A stretch of DNA of 64,000 nt, taken from sequence record OZ035760.1. One strand, given 5' to 3'. The translations under genes and the position numbers were made by a program. Of this stretch, positions 13,387 to 21,646 are shown one piece after another; within the stretch, counting starts at the first letter, position 1; each line of letters starts with the position of its first letter. The notes beneath the pieces are model-generated. The model made no database searches. It saw only the letters and a list, made by a program, of their open reading frames with translations, and had not been told where the DNA came from. The DNA is from Tequatrovirus NIC06P2.

Positions 13387-13872
13387 TCAAGTATTGTAAA
13401 ACATTTGATTCAATCGCTTATATTGCCGAATCTTTTGGTCAGAAAAAGAAATTTGAGTTTCAAGCCATTCAATGTACTCTGCGGCAGCTTGCATCAGGTT
13501 ACCTTCATAGCCATCGTTATTTTCTTGTGCAGCTAATTTAGCTAATGCGTATGAAATACGTTCACCTTGAAAAGCGGCTTCAGGCTTCTGAACAACTTGA
13601 TTAGTTCGCTCTACAACTTCTTCAATTTCGCCATTTTCGACTGATTCAGCATTCCATAAGCACCAATACGTAATTGGCTTATCGTAGATGTTAATAATCT
13701 TTCCATCAGAAAGTTCAATTTCAATAATTCCAGTATCAGGTTCTATATCATCTTCGCATTCTTTTGCAAGTTCACGAACTTTAAAGACAGTACCTGCACT
13801 AAGTTCCGGCCAGTAATTACATAGCCCTGTATCAGCACGATTAATTCTAAACCACTTATCTACTGTAATCAT
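13387..13872 (-). CDS. Hypothetical protein at the T4 pin (protease inhibitor) position, 161 aa from second Met
   Basis: Synteny (immediately after gene 49) and length only. Confidence 0.45.
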   Translation of the reverse strand: MITVDKWFRINRADTGLCNYWPELSAGTVFKVRELAKECEDDIEPDTGIIEIELSDGKIINIYDKPITYWCLWNAESVENGEIEEVVERTNQVVQKPEAAFQGERISYALAKLAAQENNDGYEGNLMQAAAEYIEWLETQISFSDQKIRQYKRLNQMFYNT

Positions 13873-13995
13873 GTCCCATCTCCATATCAATTAAGTCATT
13901 TATCGTTGGTTCATTATATACTGTTTCTTCATCAGTGTAAACCGGTTCTTCCGGCTCTGGCTCTACAGTTTCCCATCTAGCCGCCCACCAAGGTT

Positions 13996-14316
13996 TTATA
14001 GCGTAATCCATTCTCGTACTGTCTGAGTTACTACACGTTCTCGAAGCTCAACCAGTTCAACAGTAGGAACTGCATAATACCAGTCAGAATGGTAAGAACC
14101 TGAGCGAGATTCATTTACGGAAACATATACGTAGTGTTTTGGGCTAAAGTAAATTACTCGACGATATTGGCATTTGCCTTGTTGAGTCCATTCTTCGGAT
14201 TCAATCTGAATAAGATAGTCGGAAAAATCGAAATCATAGTTTTCCGAAAATGCATCATGGTCTTCGATGATTTCGCTCAGAACTGCATCAACATCTAATT
14301 TATTTTCAATAGTCAT
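13996..14316 (-). CDS. Hypothetical acidic protein (106 aa)
   Basis: ORF in minus-strand block. Confidence 0.5.
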   Translation of the reverse strand: MTIENKLDVDAVLSEIIEDHDAFSENYDFDFSDYLIQIESEEWTQQGKCQYRRVIYFSPKHYVYVSVNESRSGSYHSDWYYAVPTVELVELRERVVTQTVREWITL

Positions 14317-14327
14317 TTTTTCACCAA

Positions 14328-14522
14328 TTAATTTCGCAATTTATTAAGTTCTTCATAATCAATCCAGGATTCTAATCCTGATGGCAAATCAGATTCAATT
14401 TCCCAAAGAAGTTCTTCAATTTTATGAAGACGATCTAATTCTTCAGCTGGAATAGTAACCATTGATGGAGTTCTTGATACACTAATATCGTAAATCATAT
14501 TTACCCCAGTTTGACCATGCAA
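14328..14522 (-). CDS. Small hypothetical protein (64 aa)
   Basis: ORF in minus-strand block. Confidence 0.45.
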   Translation of the reverse strand: MHGQTGVNMIYDISVSRTPSMVTIPAEELDRLHKIEELLWEIESDLPSGLESWIDYEELNKLRN

Positions 14523-14716
14523 TCACCGTATTTCCACTTAGAAATAGACTTTTCACCATTAGAATAATAAACTTCGAGTTTAGCACGATTATTTTTAATT
14601 TGAATAACCTTGGCTGTCATCAAAGTTCCATACCCATAGTAAACTGCAACTTCATCACCTACATATACCGCGCTTCCGCGGTAGTCATGGATATAATCAG
14701 TTCCTTCGAGAATCAT
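14501..14716 (-). CDS. Small hypothetical protein (71 aa)
   Basis: ORF with 4-nt overlap to nrdC stop. Confidence 0.45.
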   Translation of the reverse strand: MILEGTDYIHDYRGSAVYVGDEVAVYYGYGTLMTAKVIQIKNNRAKLEVYYSNGEKSISKWKYGDCMVKLG

Positions 14717-15235: not shown

Positions 15236-15524
15236 ATCGGTGTTTACAATGGCGACATTTATAACGAAGATTACTAGTCTGCCAATGAACTAATTGTACC
15301 TGTTCAGTACCGCATTCAGGACAATTAGGAACGTTTTTAGAAGCACGTTCGCGGCGTTCAACCATAACCATAATGGCATCCCAAGCAGGAGGTTTAAAGT
15401 CTAAATCATCACAACCATGAATCTTTCCACGCATTTCCAAATCGTCTTCTTCACCGGCCATAATAATTTTAATTAAACTGAAATTACTTGAAGCTGCAAT
15501 GTCTTCTAATAGACGCTTTTTCAT
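15207..15524 (-). CDS. Zinc-ribbon protein (105 aa)
   Basis: CPECG...CRHCKHRF four-Cys motif. Confidence 0.5.
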
Positions 15525-16450
15525 TTCAATACCTCAATAGCATTACGTAAACCATTTGCTTTTGCATTAAGAGCTTTTAACAATTTGGTGTGTTCTGCAA
15601 TTTGGGCTTCAACTTCAATCAAACGAGCATTGAGATATTCGCGTTCTTCACTCAGATTATCAACCTTTTCTACTTTAGGCTCTTTTACAACTGTCTTATA
15701 TGTATTAGGGTTCTTCAGTTTAATTAGAATGCGTGAACTGTATAACATTGAACCATTATCTTCGGTTTCGTCATACATTTCCACTACGTCCATCATCTCC
15801 ACCATCGTGCAGAGTTTATAAGACAACGAACGAATAATTTTGTTGTGCTTATTAATTTCTCTAGCTGTCATGGTGCCGAGATTACGTGAGTAATAATAAG
15901 GAACCTGGATATTAATTAATACTGATGAACCACCTGGCTTGTGTGTTACTTCATCAGCAATAACCCAATCCTTAACATGAACTGTATTTGTACGGTCATC
16001 GCCCGCGGTAAATAGTTTACGAGCATGCTTAAAAAGCATATTCACTTGGTCATTGAATTGACAAGCGAATTTATCAGCAAATTTAGTTTCGGGAATGGTA
16101 GATAACCAATCAGCCAAATGAGTCTTTTTAACATCGTTAACAATAGTAAATTCAACCAAATCGGTTATAGATGTCTCAGATTTAATGAAGCTCGGCTTCA
16201 TAAAGTTTTTAATGTTATCACTAGCTACAGTAGAAGATAACAGACGAGAACGTTTAAACCATTGAAGCAAATTGCCTAACGAATGAGAATAAGCGTTTTG
16301 AGTATCTTTACAGATATGATTTTCCTGGCCAACATATTGAAGGAAATCACGAAGAATATTATTGATTACTGCCCTGTGTCCTATCTGATAATTACGATGT
16401 TTAGTAATAAGACTGTCAAAATAATCAATATAATGTTTACGAGTTTTCAT
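15521..16450 (-). CDS. Hypothetical protein with C-terminal coiled coil (309 aa), member of tandem paralog array
   Basis: N-terminus MKTRKHYIDYF; C-terminal heptad-rich segment. Confidence 0.6.
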   Translation of the reverse strand: MKTRKHYIDYFDSLITKHRNYQIGHRAVINNILRDFLQYVGQENHICKDTQNAYSHSLGNLLQWFKRSRLLSSTVASDNIKNFMKPSFIKSETSITDLVEFTIVNDVKKTHLADWLSTIPETKFADKFACQFNDQVNMLFKHARKLFTAGDDRTNTVHVKDWVIADEVTHKPGGSSVLINIQVPYYYSRNLGTMTAREINKHNKIIRSLSYKLCTMVEMMDVVEMYDETEDNGSMLYSSRILIKLKNPNTYKTVVKEPKVEKVDNLSEEREYLNARLIEVEAQIAEHTKLLKALNAKANGLRNAIEVLK

Positions 16451-16502
16451 GTTCTTCTCACTTTGTTAATGATTTGTACTCCGAGCCATCCTTGGCTTTA
16501 AA

Positions 16503-17504
16503 TTACTTAATTAACTGTAAAGCTTGTTCTAGACGATCAAGACGATTAACGGATTCTTCCCAAATCTTTTTAGCCTGCTCATATTCTTTCTGCGCTTTAT
16601 TAGAAATTTCTAGAACTTCCTTATAAGCTTTTTCTAATGCAATAACTTCTGGACGAATTTCTACCGGTTCAGGTGAATCATCAAGACATTCCATTAGTTC
16701 CTCAAGGGTAGTTTCTTCTTTAGGAGTATTCACAATTTCATCACATTTTTGTTGATAAATTTCTTTATCAGTAGGTGAGTACGCGCACTTTACTTCACGA
16801 AGACTAATTACAATTTTATATCCTTCCCAACCGCATATATTCTTAAAAGGATATGTATGAATATTTTCTACTGTTTCCATACAAAGTAATGCGGTCTCTA
16901 ATTGACGAGTTATAGTGCTAGCAATTGAGAAAAATTTATTAATGTTCTTTTGGTTAGCTTCTGGTGTAAAAAATCCATAATTCACAAAAATAGATACTTT
17001 ATTTTTATCAAGTTCATATTCTTTTATGATAATCATATCAGAAGCCAAAGGATGAATTTGACGATAATCGCCATAACATAATTTAGAAGCTGATTTTAGA
17101 ATCTGTCCTTTGAAAAGTCTGAAATTACTAATCCAACGACGAGTAAAAATATTCTCAGGGTCTTCTTTATTATTAAGATGATAAGAATTAACATCACCGA
17201 ACCAATTATATCCTACTACATCTTTGGTTCGTTTAATTTCTTTCCCAAAATTACCAAGAATATCCCGATTAACCAAATATGAAAGAAGACGAGACTCTTT
17301 AAAGGTTTTCTTGATAAGATCTTTATCTACACGACTAGAAATTTTACGAATTTCATGAATAAATTTAGTAGAAGAAACAATACCTGCATCAACACTATTG
17401 AGCCATTGATTGATAATAGAAAGAACGCTATTTTGGCCAAACATCGGTATAGCTTTATCATCAATAACGCTATTGAATGATTTGATATATTCGTTACGAG
17501 TCAT
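16503..17504 (-). CDS. Hypothetical protein with C-terminal coiled coil (333 aa from MTRNEYIK), paralog array member
   Basis: SD GAGGAG upstream of ATG at 17504; early promoter at 17534-17563; shares a block (RRWISNFRLFKGQILKSASKL vs EWRFIALFRKQLKQILSTASRL) with the next protein. Confidence 0.6.
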   Translation of the reverse strand: MTRNEYIKSFNSVIDDKAIPMFGQNSVLSIINQWLNSVDAGIVSSTKFIHEIRKISSRVDKDLIKKTFKESRLLSYLVNRDILGNFGKEIKRTKDVVGYNWFGDVNSYHLNNKEDPENIFTRRWISNFRLFKGQILKSASKLCYGDYRQIHPLASDMIIIKEYELDKNKVSIFVNYGFFTPEANQKNINKFFSIASTITRQLETALLCMETVENIHTYPFKNICGWEGYKIVISLREVKCAYSPTDKEIYQQKCDEIVNTPKEETTLEELMECLDDSPEPVEIRPEVIALEKAYKEVLEISNKAQKEYEQAKKIWEESVNRLDRLEQALQLIK

Positions 17505-17533
17505 ATTAATCTCCTCAGTAGAAAGTAAGAACA

Positions 17534-17563
17534 TTATACCACATCCTTGTGGCAAAGTAAACT
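17534..17563 (-). promoter_or_regulatory. T4 early-type promoter (GTTTAC, 18 nt spacer, TATAAT)
   Basis: Minus strand: CTAGTTTACTTTGCCACAAGGATGTGGTATAATGTTC. Confidence 0.5.
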
Positions 17564-18587
17564 AGTTCAGTGCATTTAGCGCATTGTTCAGTTTAGAACG
17601 TTGCTTTGTCAGATTTTGAACCCTTGACTGAGCTTGTTCTAACGCCTTTTCAGCTTCTAGCACTTCATTAGTTGCTTTAACGAGTTCATCATCTACTGCC
17701 TTAAGAGACTTCTCAATCGCATCTGCATGCCATTTTTCAACAGGTTTAAGACTCGGATTTTCAACAGGAAGAAAATTCACTTTATTAAGTTTACATGCAT
17801 CTATATTGCTTGAACTATGCATCCAAAATTTAGGATCGTTTGATAAGTAATTGGATAAATTTAAATTTAAGTTATCTTGTACTTCTTGCTTTTTCTCTTG
17901 CGGGACTTCGTCCTTTCTCAAAAAATCATATTTAAATGAAACGATCATATCAAGTTCATATGATGTTGTATCTAACTTAAATCGTTCAAAACGAGGTAAA
18001 ATCTTAGATTGAACAGCAGCAACAACATCCATATACTTAAATGCTTCTGTCAGCTGTGATTTAAGACATTCACAAATTGAAAGAGAATTTTTAGTATTAG
18101 GCTTAAAGCTAATTCGTGCAGTTCTATTATTTTCTTTTAACGGTCTTACTTCCATCTGAAGAGTATAACCATCAAATTTCAGATTCTTTAAGTTAATATC
18201 AGAACCTTTTAATCGACTAGCAGTAGACAAAATTTGCTTTAATTGTTTACGGAATAGAGCAATAAATCTCCATTCAAGACGATAATGATTTGGATTAAAA
18301 AATCCTGTTGATAAATCGACCTTACTCTGACCAACGCCTTGAACAAATAAAGGATTTTTATAATCAATAGTTTTACAGAAATCGGTGAGCTGCTCACGAG
18401 CAGTCATTTGAGTAATATACCCCGCTTTACTAAAATGACGTAACCATTCACTGCTATTCATATACTTAAAGTGAATATCACGATTAACTTTATCAGGGTC
18501 TAAATTATTTTGGCACAAAAATGTCATAACATTACGGGTATAGCTGGCATTACGAACCATATCTTCAATTTGAGAACGAGTTTTCAT
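17562..18587 (-). CDS. Hypothetical protein with C-terminal coiled coil (341 aa), paralog array member
   Basis: N-terminus MKTRSQIEDMV; C-terminal coiled coil. Confidence 0.6.
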   Translation of the reverse strand: MKTRSQIEDMVRNASYTRNVMTFLCQNNLDPDKVNRDIHFKYMNSSEWLRHFSKAGYITQMTAREQLTDFCKTIDYKNPLFVQGVGQSKVDLSTGFFNPNHYRLEWRFIALFRKQLKQILSTASRLKGSDINLKNLKFDGYTLQMEVRPLKENNRTARISFKPNTKNSLSICECLKSQLTEAFKYMDVVAAVQSKILPRFERFKLDTTSYELDMIVSFKYDFLRKDEVPQEKKQEVQDNLNLNLSNYLSNDPKFWMHSSSNIDACKLNKVNFLPVENPSLKPVEKWHADAIEKSLKAVDDELVKATNEVLEAEKALEQAQSRVQNLTKQRSKLNNALNALN

Positions 18588-18595
18588 GGTGTTCC

Positions 18596-19498
18596 TTAAG
18601 ATTTAAGTAAATCAATAATTTTAATTAATTTTTCACGTTCAGATTTAGCTTTACTACTCAATCCAGATAGTCTGAAAATTTCATCGTCATATTGTTGAAT
18701 AGAAATATTCAGCTCTTCAATTTGCTTATTAAAATAATCAATTTGTTCAGAATGTTTTTCGTTACTACGAACTGGTACAGGTTTTGTAGGCAATTTAGTT
18801 GAACTGGATTCATCCGGGCGATAAATTAAAATACAACTTGAACCAATTGGACATTTTGCACCAGATGAATATTCTAATGTTCCAGCTTCTTTTAAAATTT
18901 CAAAAGCTAAACAGAGATGATGACCCATATTGGCATAATCTGTAGAGTGAGCTCTGACGTAATAATCATCTCCACGAGTGCTAAATTTAAAGCATTTAAG
19001 GTCTTCTGTATTATTAGTTTTAAAAATCATTTGTTTATCTAGACCTTTAGCTAATCGAGCGCCTAATGCTAATAATCGTCGTTGATTTTCCCACAAATCT
19101 GCGATCATTTGGTCAAATGATAATTTCGGCATTAGTCGACCATAAAGGTCGTATCCTTTATTATAATTGCGAAGGATTTCACTCGCGTTAATGCGAGACA
19201 ACGCTCCAATTTTATTAAGGGCTTTCATGATGCGATTAGATAAAAGCATTCCAGATCCGTTTGTTCGTTGTAAATGTTTTTCTAATCCAAATCCAATATC
19301 AACTTTAAACTTATCTAAAATTTCGGCGTGAACATCTTTATCAATAACATTTAAATTTAGTACTGGGTTAAATTTATGAAAAAATTTATCTGACTCGTCG
19401 CGTTGAAGTACAGTCCATTCATTTGATTTTTTATTAACTAAAGATTTAATTACTGCATTGACATTATTAATTACTACTGACATATTTTCCTCACTCAA
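18596..19498 (-). CDS. Hypothetical protein with C-terminal coiled coil (300 aa)
   Basis: C-terminus EQIDYFNKQIEELNISIQQYDDEIFRL... Confidence 0.6.
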   Translation of the reverse strand: MSEENMSVVINNVNAVIKSLVNKKSNEWTVLQRDESDKFFHKFNPVLNLNVIDKDVHAEILDKFKVDIGFGLEKHLQRTNGSGMLLSNRIMKALNKIGALSRINASEILRNYNKGYDLYGRLMPKLSFDQMIADLWENQRRLLALGARLAKGLDKQMIFKTNNTEDLKCFKFSTRGDDYYVRAHSTDYANMGHHLCLAFEILKEAGTLEYSSGAKCPIGSSCILIYRPDESSSTKLPTKPVPVRSNEKHSEQIDYFNKQIEELNISIQQYDDEIFRLSGLSSKAKSEREKLIKIIDLLKS

Positions 19499-19954: not shown

Positions 19955-20482
19955 TTATGCGAGTACCGTCTTTAACCGTTCTTCAAACTTCCGAAGAGTA
20001 TTTTGGCGTTCAGCTCTTTGCTTTTTGTAAGTTTCAATACGCTCTGAAATGAGAGTGTATCGTTCATTTACTGATTCTTTCATAAAATCAGGAATTTCAC
20101 GAGAAGCTTTAATCTCGTCAAATTTATCAATAACAGCTTGCTCTTCAGCAATTAAGTTATCATACATCAAAATATCTTTCTTGATGAACCCAATATCTTC
20201 TTGAGTTACACGAGATAATTTAGATGCTTTATCCTTTTTGTACTGTTCGTTAGTATCACGAGACCAGTGTAATGTACGATTTTTATTCGTATTCTTGTAA
20301 ATTTCTACAATACCAATCTCATCAATAATAACGATCCAATTCCAACGGGATTTGTAAATTTGTCCTCCATCAACCGTGATTTCACCTCCGATTGAGATGT
20401 CATTAAAGAACTTGCTTTGCGCTTCAGATTTAAATTTACCATCGTTGTAATTTACCAGGTTGAAAATATCTTTAGCGTTCAT
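19955..20482 (-). CDS. Hypothetical protein (175 aa from MNAKDIF)
   Basis: SD GGAGAA upstream of ATG at 20482; track N-terminal extension lies in the promoter. Confidence 0.55.
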   Translation of the reverse strand: MNAKDIFNLVNYNDGKFKSEAQSKFFNDISIGGEITVDGGQIYKSRWNWIVIIDEIGIVEIYKNTNKNRTLHWSRDTNEQYKKDKASKLSRVTQEDIGFIKKDILMYDNLIAEEQAVIDKFDEIKASREIPDFMKESVNERYTLISERIETYKKQRAERQNTLRKFEERLKTVLA

Positions 20483-20926: not shown

Positions 20927-21646
20927 TTAGGATTCTTCTAAATGTCTTTTCTGAAAAGTTGATACCATACTACGATACGGTTCATTTGGATATCCGTGTT
21001 TTATAGCTTCCTTTGTAAATTTTCTCCATCCATATTTAGTTTCTTTCCAAAGCTCGAATAATTCATCTTCATACTGCCATATAGTTAAATGAGAACGCTT
21101 TGCAGCTTTAATTCCATTAATATGCTTTTCTTTTACTGTAGGATTGCTTAGTTTCTTTTTAATAATATTACTAACTTTTCTAACAAAAACTGGGTCCTTA
21201 TATCGTTGCGAAGTTTTTATTGAAGTGTTTAATTTAGCTTCCGGCGTGGATGTGACCTCTTTCATCTTTTTCTTCATATGCTGTATATGATTAGGATTTT
21301 TCCATAAATTTATAGAATGCTTTTTGCATTTTATCCTAGTTTCATCTGCAACCTTTCCTCCTTCACCCCCGTATGACAGGTTAACACAGTTTTTTCCATA
21401 TTTCAATTTACCTGCCATGATATATAATATTTCAGCTTGTACCATTTTATCATAATTATCAAAAACTTCTAAAACCGTTTTTGATAATATGTGGTCATTT
21501 GACACTTTTACACGTTCTATATAATTTCCACTACCAACATACGAATCATTGATGTTATTAGTTATATGTCGACCATAATAGTATTTCTTAATACCTGTCT
21601 TTAAATTTAATATTTCAGTTTTATAGATAGTAAAATATTTTTTCAT
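20927..21646 (-). CDS. GIY-YIG homing endonuclease (Seg-like)
   Basis: N-terminal FTIYKTEILNLKTGIKKYYYGRH...YVGSGN GIY-YIG pattern; basic C-terminal region typical of Seg DNA-binding tails. Confidence 0.6.
   Translation of the reverse strand: MKKYFTIYKTEILNLKTGIKKYYYGRHITNNINDSYVGSGNYIERVKVSNDHILSKTVLEVFDNYDKMVQAEILYIMAGKLKYGKNCVNLSYGGEGGKVADETRIKCKKHSINLWKNPNHIQHMKKKMKEVTSTPEAKLNTSIKTSQRYKDPVFVRKVSNIIKKKLSNPTVKEKHINGIKAAKRSHLTIWQYEDELFELWKETKYGWRKFTKEAIKHGYPNEPYRSMVSTFQKRHLEES

Follow-up and report, generated by a model that had tools for sequence, protein, structure and literature searches.

Four consecutive genes downstream of nrdC in the genome of Tequatrovirus NIC06P2 (sequence record OZ035760.1) raise the question of whether they descend from one gene and, if so, whether they share the task that has been described for one of them. 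The DNA analyzed here, called the window below, is a 64,000-nucleotide stretch of this T4-type (Tequatrovirus) genome, and the four genes lie one after another on its minus strand (309, 333, 341, and 295 amino acids), where the initial annotation had placed them. They are true paralogs of one superfamily, homologous over an N-terminal head as well as a C-terminal tail. The third gene, which is 94% identical to T4 NrdC.5, is by its sequence the ortholog of a published factor that counters the bacterial defense protein Dsr1.

Synteny with the T4 reference (NC_000866) identified the four co-oriented genes as the orthologs of nrdC.3, nrdC.4, nrdC.5, and nrdC.6. The array is flanked by nrdC, nrdC.1, and nrdC.2 on one side and by nrdC.7 and nrdC.8 on the other, in the order and orientation of T4. 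In a nucleotide search, positions 15521-19498 were 96-98% identical to many Tequatrovirus genomes, and 653 phage records matched this DNA, 462 of which covered at least 80% of the query. The nrdC.3 ortholog (15521..16450, minus strand; MKTRKHY...) and the nrdC.4 ortholog (16503..17504, minus strand; MTRNEY...) belonged to a single PHROG, phrog_1435 (E values of 1.2e-115 and 8.9e-169, respectively). The nrdC.5 ortholog (17562..18587, minus strand; MKTRSQ...) matched PF23882 (DUF7235) with an E value of 5.6e-118 and scored 394.3 bits over residues 1-341, where the cut-off is 30, and the nrdC.6 ortholog (18596..19483, minus strand; MSVVIN...) belonged to phrog_2257. Three of the proteins begin with MKTR or MTR, as had been read from the sequence initially. 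Protein identity to T4 was 60% for nrdC.3, 98% (97.9%) for nrdC.4, 94% (94.4%) for nrdC.5, and 84% for full-length nrdC.6, which was 83-100% identical across its first 240 residues; the full-length value is lowered by a frameshift in the T4 reference record. That record (NC_000866, 12000-12200) annotates NrdC.6 with 275 amino acids and an unrelated C-terminus, and the conserved nrdC.6 tail NISIQQYDDEIFRLSGLSSKAKSEREKLIKIVDLLKS is encoded in another frame after ...QIEEL, so that T4 nrdC.6 contains a 1-nucleotide frameshift or a sequencing error. In the T4 annotation available with the HIDEN-SEQ preprint, nrdC.6 has 891 nucleotides.

The descent of the four genes from a common ancestor was most direct for the first three. 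nrdC.3 and nrdC.4 matched each other in BLASTP (E 6e-8, 26.5% identity over 226 amino acids) and in HHalign (97.3% probability, E 1.6e-11, 253 columns). With deeper alignments, HHalign also joined nrdC.4 to nrdC.5 (89.9%, E 1.7e-6) over 240 collinear columns that extend from residue 64 to the C-terminus. The internal block that the initial annotation had noticed between the second and third genes lies inside this alignment, where RRWISNFRLFKGQILKSASK is aligned with EWRFIALFRKQLKQILSTASR. An iterative hidden Markov model (HMM) search from nrdC.4 recruited nrdC.3, gp080 of Klebsiella phage Marfa, and gp085 of Enterobacter phage IME523, the last of these at the second iteration, and then nrdC.5; the C-terminus of Marfa gp080 matched the tail region of nrdC.5 in HHalign (94.6%, E 6.9e-8). 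On the other hand, a joint profile HMM of nrdC.3 and nrdC.4 had only 10 matches among 1.84 billion representative proteins, none of them nrdC.5 or nrdC.6, and the family therefore cannot be united by sequence search alone.

nrdC.6 is the most divergent member, and its kinship emerged indirectly. Its HMM matched IME523 gp085 (E 2e-4, with the database size set to 100,000) over profile positions 107-279 (173 positions). The AlphaFold2 model of nrdC.4 matched the BFVD model of NrdC.6 from phage JS10 in a Foldseek search (E 2.4e-5, probability 1.0), and the nrdC.4 and nrdC.6 models had common BFVD targets in IME523 (E 4.6e-8 and 7.7e-8, respectively), PM2 (8e-8 and 3.7e-7), Acj61, Acj9, Mineola, CBH8, and fHe-Yen9-01, all of which are uncharacterized proteins of T4-like phages. 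The secondary-structure elements of the two models corresponded one to one and in the same order. Furthermore, a joint alignment of the four families and two bridging proteins contained three shared motifs, namely SR-L-S...A....L.NF.K in a helix, IL..A.[KR]L..G.D in a helix-turn, and P-V-E/P...H just before the C-terminal helix, which ends in ..QR.KL..A[IL]..LK. The weak HHalign alignments of nrdC.6 fell on the same two head motifs. Head similarity together with the same topology was thus found by sequence for the first three genes and indirectly for the fourth.

These comparisons bear on the possibility that the four genes are unrelated and alike only through convergent coiled-coil composition. 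Pfam splits the set into three families. PF26897 is precomputed for all 64 database homologs of nrdC.4 and PF26899 for all 105 of nrdC.6, and genes 1, 2, and 4 did not match the PF23882 model in a Pfam scan. The direct HHalign comparisons of nrdC.6 with nrdC.4 or nrdC.5 were not significant, and coiled coils do yield spurious profile matches. However, the alignments span the head (253 columns for nrdC.3-nrdC.4, 240 for nrdC.4-nrdC.5, and positions 107-279 for nrdC.6-IME523), two head motifs align in all families, and the order of secondary-structure elements matches, with reciprocal Foldseek hits. An origin by convergence is largely refuted and appears extremely improbable. The heads are divergent, as the initial annotation had stated. 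nrdC.3, nrdC.4, and nrdC.6 are only about 15-25% identical to nrdC.5 and are filed in other Pfam and PHROG families. The resemblance is nevertheless stronger than it had claimed, because the homology of all four proteins extends beyond the tail into the head. The pairwise profile alignments that it had suggested were significant for nrdC.3-nrdC.4 and nrdC.4-nrdC.5 but not for the direct pairs of nrdC.6 with nrdC.4 or nrdC.5.

All four proteins share an architecture that consists of a head, formed by a helical N-terminal part and an α/β core, a flexible linker rich in Pro, Glu, and Lys, and a tail helix of 45-60 residues. AlphaFold2, which was run on single chains only, predicted the same succession for nrdC.4 and nrdC.6, in which helices at the N-terminus are followed by an α/β core, a linker of low confidence, and the C-terminal helix. 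The nrdC.4 model (predicted local distance difference test score, pLDDT, 82.6; predicted template modeling score, pTM, 0.68) had its low-confidence linker at residues 259-284 and a single helix at 285-332, within the tail segment of residues 285-333 (16506..16652, minus strand). In the nrdC.6 model (pLDDT 77.4, pTM 0.66), the tail segment of residues 245-295 (18599..18751, minus strand) formed two helices, 245-271 and 277-294, broken at SGLSS. A crude heptad score singled out the C-terminal 45-60 amino acids in all four proteins, and its comparison with shuffled sequences was clear for the third and fourth genes (p ≤ 0.005; the fourth was reached by none of 200 shuffles). By this score, the segment of nrdC.3 comprises approximately residues 259-309 (15524..15676, minus strand) and that of nrdC.5 approximately residues 281-341, after a KPVE..H motif (17565..17747, minus strand; p 0.005). 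Among nrdC.5 orthologs, the C-terminal helix varies in length through an indel of exactly 7 residues. The C-terminal coiled coil proposed by the initial annotation thus agrees with the predicted helices of genes 2 and 4, the 7-residue indel in nrdC.5, the weak matches of the nrdC.5 profile to coiled coils of known structure (keratin and SMC), and the heptad score, which was marginal for genes 1 and 2.

The biological role of one member has been described. A T4 clone that had lost nrdC.5 by deletion plated on ECOR17 only if dsr1 had been disrupted; in MG1655, ECOR17 dsr1 carried on a plasmid protected against nrdC.5-deleted T4, and nrdC.5 expressed from a plasmid restored infectivity (Srikant, Guegler and Laub, eLife 2022, PMC9391042). 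Dsr1 is a SIR2-domain defense protein, the sensor domain of which is reported to recognize the phage major capsid protein (PMC13581612, 2026). The initial annotation had held that no function could be assigned, which is outdated for the third gene, and had considered an anti-defense role, which holds for nrdC.5, since the T4 copy restores infection on Escherichia coli with Dsr1; for nrdC.3, nrdC.4, and nrdC.6 we infer such a role. A literature search found no paper that treats nrdC.3-nrdC.6 as one family or that gives a mechanism for NrdC.5.

We consider it probable, with moderate confidence, that the four proteins are diversified stoichiometric immune inhibitors on a shared oligomerizing scaffold, as published for one member and by extension for the other three. 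Every head would have its own bacterial immune protein, which it would bind and block one to one, so that the variable head would determine target specificity; Dsr1 would be the target of NrdC.5, presumably through direct binding. The protein would be made early in infection, prior to the triggering of the host sensor, and would thereby reach the sensor ahead of the late trigger protein. The predicted coiled-coil tail would oligomerize the protein and so confer a higher avidity for oligomeric immune proteins. The best-understood model for how NrdC.5 may act on Dsr1 is DSAD1 of phage SPbeta, which is reported to counteract the SIR2-domain, NAD-depleting defense protein DSR2 (PMC10973363, PMC11087589). 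The analogy concerns the mode of action only; DSAD1 comes from another phage group, has another target, and showed no sequence or fold relationship to the four proteins. The triggers also differ, as Dsr1 is reported to sense the major capsid protein (PMC13581612), whereas DSR2 recognizes the tail tube.

The superfamily is small and was found only in T4-like phages, where its one to four copies lie downstream of nrdC in every case. All significant Foldseek matches (E ≤ 0.001) came from Straboviridae-type phages, the hosts of which include Escherichia, Yersinia, Klebsiella, Enterobacter, Serratia, Erwinia, Pectobacterium, and Acinetobacter; a protein of an Aeromonas phage reached an E value of only 5.5e-3. 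A single copy occurs in Klebsiella phage Marfa and Enterobacter phage IME523, two tandem copies in Acinetobacter phage Acj61 (p120/p121, between nrdC and nrdC.10), three in VR25-like and JS10-like coliphages (nrdC.6, nrdC.5, and nrdC.4), and four in Tequatrovirus, where nrdC.3 is the extra gene. The array appears to have arisen when one ancestral gene, located directly downstream of nrdC in T4-like phages, underwent tandem duplication. Its youngest and most polymorphic member, nrdC.3, was duplicated from nrdC.4. Family HMMs found no further paralogs in the 64-kb window. The 257-amino-acid open reading frames (ORFs) that adjoin the single-copy genes (Marfa gp084 and IME523 gp088), as well as Acj61p118, were rejected as members, as they had no similarity to the family. 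Two genes upstream of the single-copy member of Marfa, gp082 (L017, 5272-5706; 144 amino acids) has a terminal helix with the family-typical ...LFALK.

Variation within the array is concentrated in the heads. nrdC.3 has at least three allele classes among the 653 records, with at least 90% identity in 358, 60-80% in 191, and less than 60% in 100; these classes are approximately 95, 76, and 60% identical to the window copy, in genomes whose flanking genes share 90-98% identity. When the window and T4 alleles are compared, identity is 76-100% in the first 60 and last 40 residues and 40-56% in the core, with the divergence concentrated in residues ~60-270. The ratio of nonsynonymous to synonymous polymorphism (pN/pS), calculated from 5-7 close genomes, was 0.15-0.22 for the heads compared with 0.012-0.023 for nrdC.8 and nrdC.10. 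Within single proteins, it was 0.09 for the tail and 0.22 for the head of nrdC.4, and 0.03 and 0.15, respectively, for nrdC.6. Mean pairwise identity among nrdC.4 orthologs was likewise higher in the C-terminal helix (0.67) than in the head (0.50).

Rearrangements of the array are also common in nature. In metagenome and ENA contigs of up to 167 kb, nrdC.4 is deleted and nrdC.5 and nrdC.3 are fused in one protein (P0120), in which the middle part of NrdC.5 runs out of register into NrdC.3, the latter beginning at its motif-2 helix. Recombination between homologous blocks was rejected as its origin, given that the two parts meet out of register, where both have a VN dipeptide ((K/Q)VN), and the fusion therefore points to illegitimate recombination. 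NrdC.6 of Shigella phage Sf25 (P0122, 378 amino acids) contains an internal tandem duplication of approximately 83 residues, with IRAHSTDY...QIEEL present twice, directly before the C-terminal helix. In Escherichia phage vB_EcoM_G8 (L006, 7001-8003), which is otherwise 98% identical to the window, nrdC.4 is split into ORFs of 193 and 158 amino acids, and the 158-amino-acid fragment is a separate BFVD protein. In ACG-C40, nrdC.3 is truncated to its last 72 codons.

Signatures of an arms race, namely the nrdC.3 alleles that diverge in the head only, the fusions, duplications, and disruptions, the changing copy number, and the pN/pS of the heads, speak for a set of immune inhibitors. Several points weigh against this reading. 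An experimental phenotype exists for only one of the four genes, and NrdC.5 itself could act indirectly, as no paper was found that shows direct binding to Dsr1. In the available HIDEN-SEQ supplements, nrdC.3-nrdC.6 of T4 and their orthologs of Bas37 showed no significant depletion; the nrdC.6 ortholog had a dip that fell short of significance (log2 fold change -0.73, q 0.81). Oligomerization through the tail is unproven, with a putative module seen in single-chain models, and the heptad scores of nrdC.3 and nrdC.4 are marginal (p 0.055-0.085). The link of nrdC.6 runs through predicted structures and one bridging sequence, its direct HHalign comparisons having E values of 0.022 with nrdC.4 and 0.064 with nrdC.5. 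Finally, pN/pS is raised in the heads but nowhere reaches 1, a pattern as compatible with relaxed constraint as with an arms race.

Some of these points would also be explained if the genes were paralogs of mixed function, with nrdC.5 alone in counter-defense and the others serving accessory roles in host physiology or in phage DNA or RNA transactions, or decaying as duplicates. The compatibility of pN/pS with relaxed constraint agrees with this explanation, as does the lack of a phenotype for nrdC.3, nrdC.4, and nrdC.6 in two functional data sets (PMC9391042 and the accessible part of HIDEN-SEQ), and natural copies of nrdC.4 (vB_EcoM_G8), nrdC.3 (ACG-C40), and nrdC.6 (the T4 reference frameshift) are disrupted. 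However, hundreds of genomes retain full-length copies of every family, strong purifying selection acts on the tails of nrdC.4 and nrdC.6 (pN/pS 0.03-0.09), and the neighboring genes are enriched for anti-defense functions. Mixed function deserves serious consideration but seems rather unlikely.

The conserved tails also suggest another arrangement, in which the C-terminal helices bring the paralogs together in one multi-headed hetero-oligomer and the proteins act jointly. Such an assembly would agree with adjacent, co-oriented genes, with a tail sequence that is distinct for each family and conserved within it, with the better conservation of tail than head in nrdC.4 and nrdC.6, and with the P-V-E/P...H motif, which nrdC.5, nrdC.6, and the single-copy bridging proteins have in front of this helix. 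However, plasmid-borne nrdC.5 alone rescued a T4 clone with a deletion that included nrdC.5 and may also have included neighboring paralogs (PMC9391042), and the natural loss of single members is tolerated. In addition, single-copy phages exist, and homo-oligomers or monomers must therefore be functional. A joint machine of this kind is improbable.

The fold of the head does not assign the proteins to a known family. Profile searches of Protein Data Bank (PDB) sequences found no solved relative for any of the four families; the only matches of the nrdC.5 profile were weak ones to keratin and SMC coiled coils, and matches to designed helical repeats, keratin, and SMC were judged to be compositional. 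The best structural matches of the α/β head, which were weak, were phage tail terminator and tail completion proteins, and the look-alikes included lambda gpU, an SPP1 gp17-like protein, a gene transfer agent (GTA) chain (6tba_4A), and the fold of the RNA polymerase alpha N-terminal domain/Rpb11. This resemblance of predicted models is treated as generic α/β likeness without family assignment, and no known fold appeared convincing. The circumstances that the initial annotation had named as contrary to its claim, i.e., no significant similarity between profiles or a clear assignment to structural proteins, were not encountered. If the likeness were more than generic, the α/β head could be a fast-evolving mimic of a conserved virion-protein fold, multimerized by the coiled coil, that plugs immune sensor domains early. 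Such a head would occupy pattern-recognition sensors, e.g., Dsr1, before the real late structural proteins appear. If true, the array would amount to a set of "sensor plugs" that is built on one scaffold and open to expansion, and three further sensor-inhibitor pairs (for nrdC.3, nrdC.4, and nrdC.6) would await discovery, but we regard a decoy of this type as quite improbable.

The genes around the array are consistent with the preferred reading of the four proteins as immune inhibitors. gp49.2 inhibits OLD (PMC13096335), nrdC.1 inhibits Septu, and bas37_0203 inhibits Druantia III (bioRxiv 10.1101/2025.11.20.689424). As bas37_0203 has 528 nucleotides and the position of nrdC.8, it is an ortholog of nrdC.8. 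The HIDEN-SEQ supplements class nrdC.3-nrdC.6 of T4 and bas37_0198-0201, their orthologs in Bas37, as non-essential. The dispensability of the array and the anti-defense functions of its neighbors, which were drawn from the literature and synteny, indicate that the locus behaves as an anti-defense island. The initial annotation had described tandem diversified paralogs with a common oligomerization module in a hyperplastic region, and the results support diversified tandem copies that share a helical module at the C-terminus and lie in a dispensable, plastic part of a T4-like genome. Other T-even clusters, such as the dmd-tifA-adfA "anti-TA (toxin-antitoxin) island" (PMC9391042) and gp49.2, nrdC.1, and the nrdC.8 ortholog, likewise consist of small non-essential genes in plastic regions, in which each gene counters one host system and genes are rapidly gained, lost, and amplified. 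The members of those clusters are mutually unrelated as far as the cited papers say, whereas the array represents one scaffold that has radiated in place.

In the window, the nrdC.8 ortholog (19955-20482, minus strand; 175 amino acids, phrog_2274) matches bas37_0203 in size (528 nucleotides) and position and ends in a heptad-like helix (...KKQRAERQNTLRKFEERLKTVLA). Its profile comparison with the four paralogs was not significant (HHalign E 0.06 or worse), and it was rejected as a fifth member; a link through a weak Foldseek match to a 175-amino-acid protein of KPV15 (E 8.5e-3), the kinship of which to nrdC.8 is unconfirmed, was not accepted either. A homing endonuclease gene (20927-21646, minus strand; 239 amino acids, phrog_314, E 1.9e-30) lies between nrdC.9 and nrdC.10, where T4 has no gene; the same insertion occurs in locus L003. 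Between pin and nrdC (13387-14716, minus strand), the ORFs differ in size from T4 49.1, 49.2, and 49.3. This stretch may be another variable counter-defense segment, because the published anti-OLD gene gp49.2 maps to it.

Gene boundaries and expression signals were also examined. The start of nrdC.6 is ATG 19483, which is preceded by a GAGG Shine-Dalgarno sequence, and its orthologs begin with MSVVIN or MSQAIN; position 19498, which the initial annotation had given as the end of the array, is a TTG upstream of the true start. For nrdC.4, the start is ATG 17504 (MTRNEY). A 350-amino-acid version extended to a TTG was rejected as an artefact, as this TTG lies inside a promoter-like site (GTTTAC-17-TGgTATAAT) that is followed by GAGGAG and ATG 17504. 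The site (17533..17561, minus strand), directly upstream of nrdC.4, is a consensus match only, with gTTTACt, a spacer of 17 nucleotides, and a TG-extended TATAAT (10 of 12 consensus matches plus TG). The promoter and terminator scan was overall no better than shuffled sequences (30 sites compared with 27.8 expected), and this candidate alone was retained because of its position and sequence. In line with T4 early promoters, we take the array genes to be of the early class. nrdC.5 has been called an early gene (PMC9391042). For genes 1, 2, and 4, no match passed the thresholds of Pfam (in a copy without PF26897 and PF26899), NCBIfam, or PADLOC, and sub-threshold matches to PHL, BipA_C, tyrosine recombinase, BrxC, and PgrA were dropped as noise or coiled-coil bias.

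The array brings known genes together in a new group around a counter-defense protein that was already known, a modest extension of known biology rather than a novel type of system. Its members are long-annotated T4 ORFs, one of which has a published counter-defense role. New is that genes filed under three Pfam and three PHROG families (PF26897, PF23882/DUF7235, and PF26899 in Pfam) form one superfamily with a head-linker-tail design, in which the other three proteins are paralogs of NrdC.5 with its architecture, and that this superfamily, present in one to four copies, keeps to the same locus throughout the T4-like phages and has variable heads and two tightly conserved tails. Three "hypothetical proteins" in hundreds of therapeutic-candidate coliphages thereby become specific and cheaply testable candidates for immune inhibitors, and the shared scaffold allows specificity to be mapped through head swaps and allele comparison.

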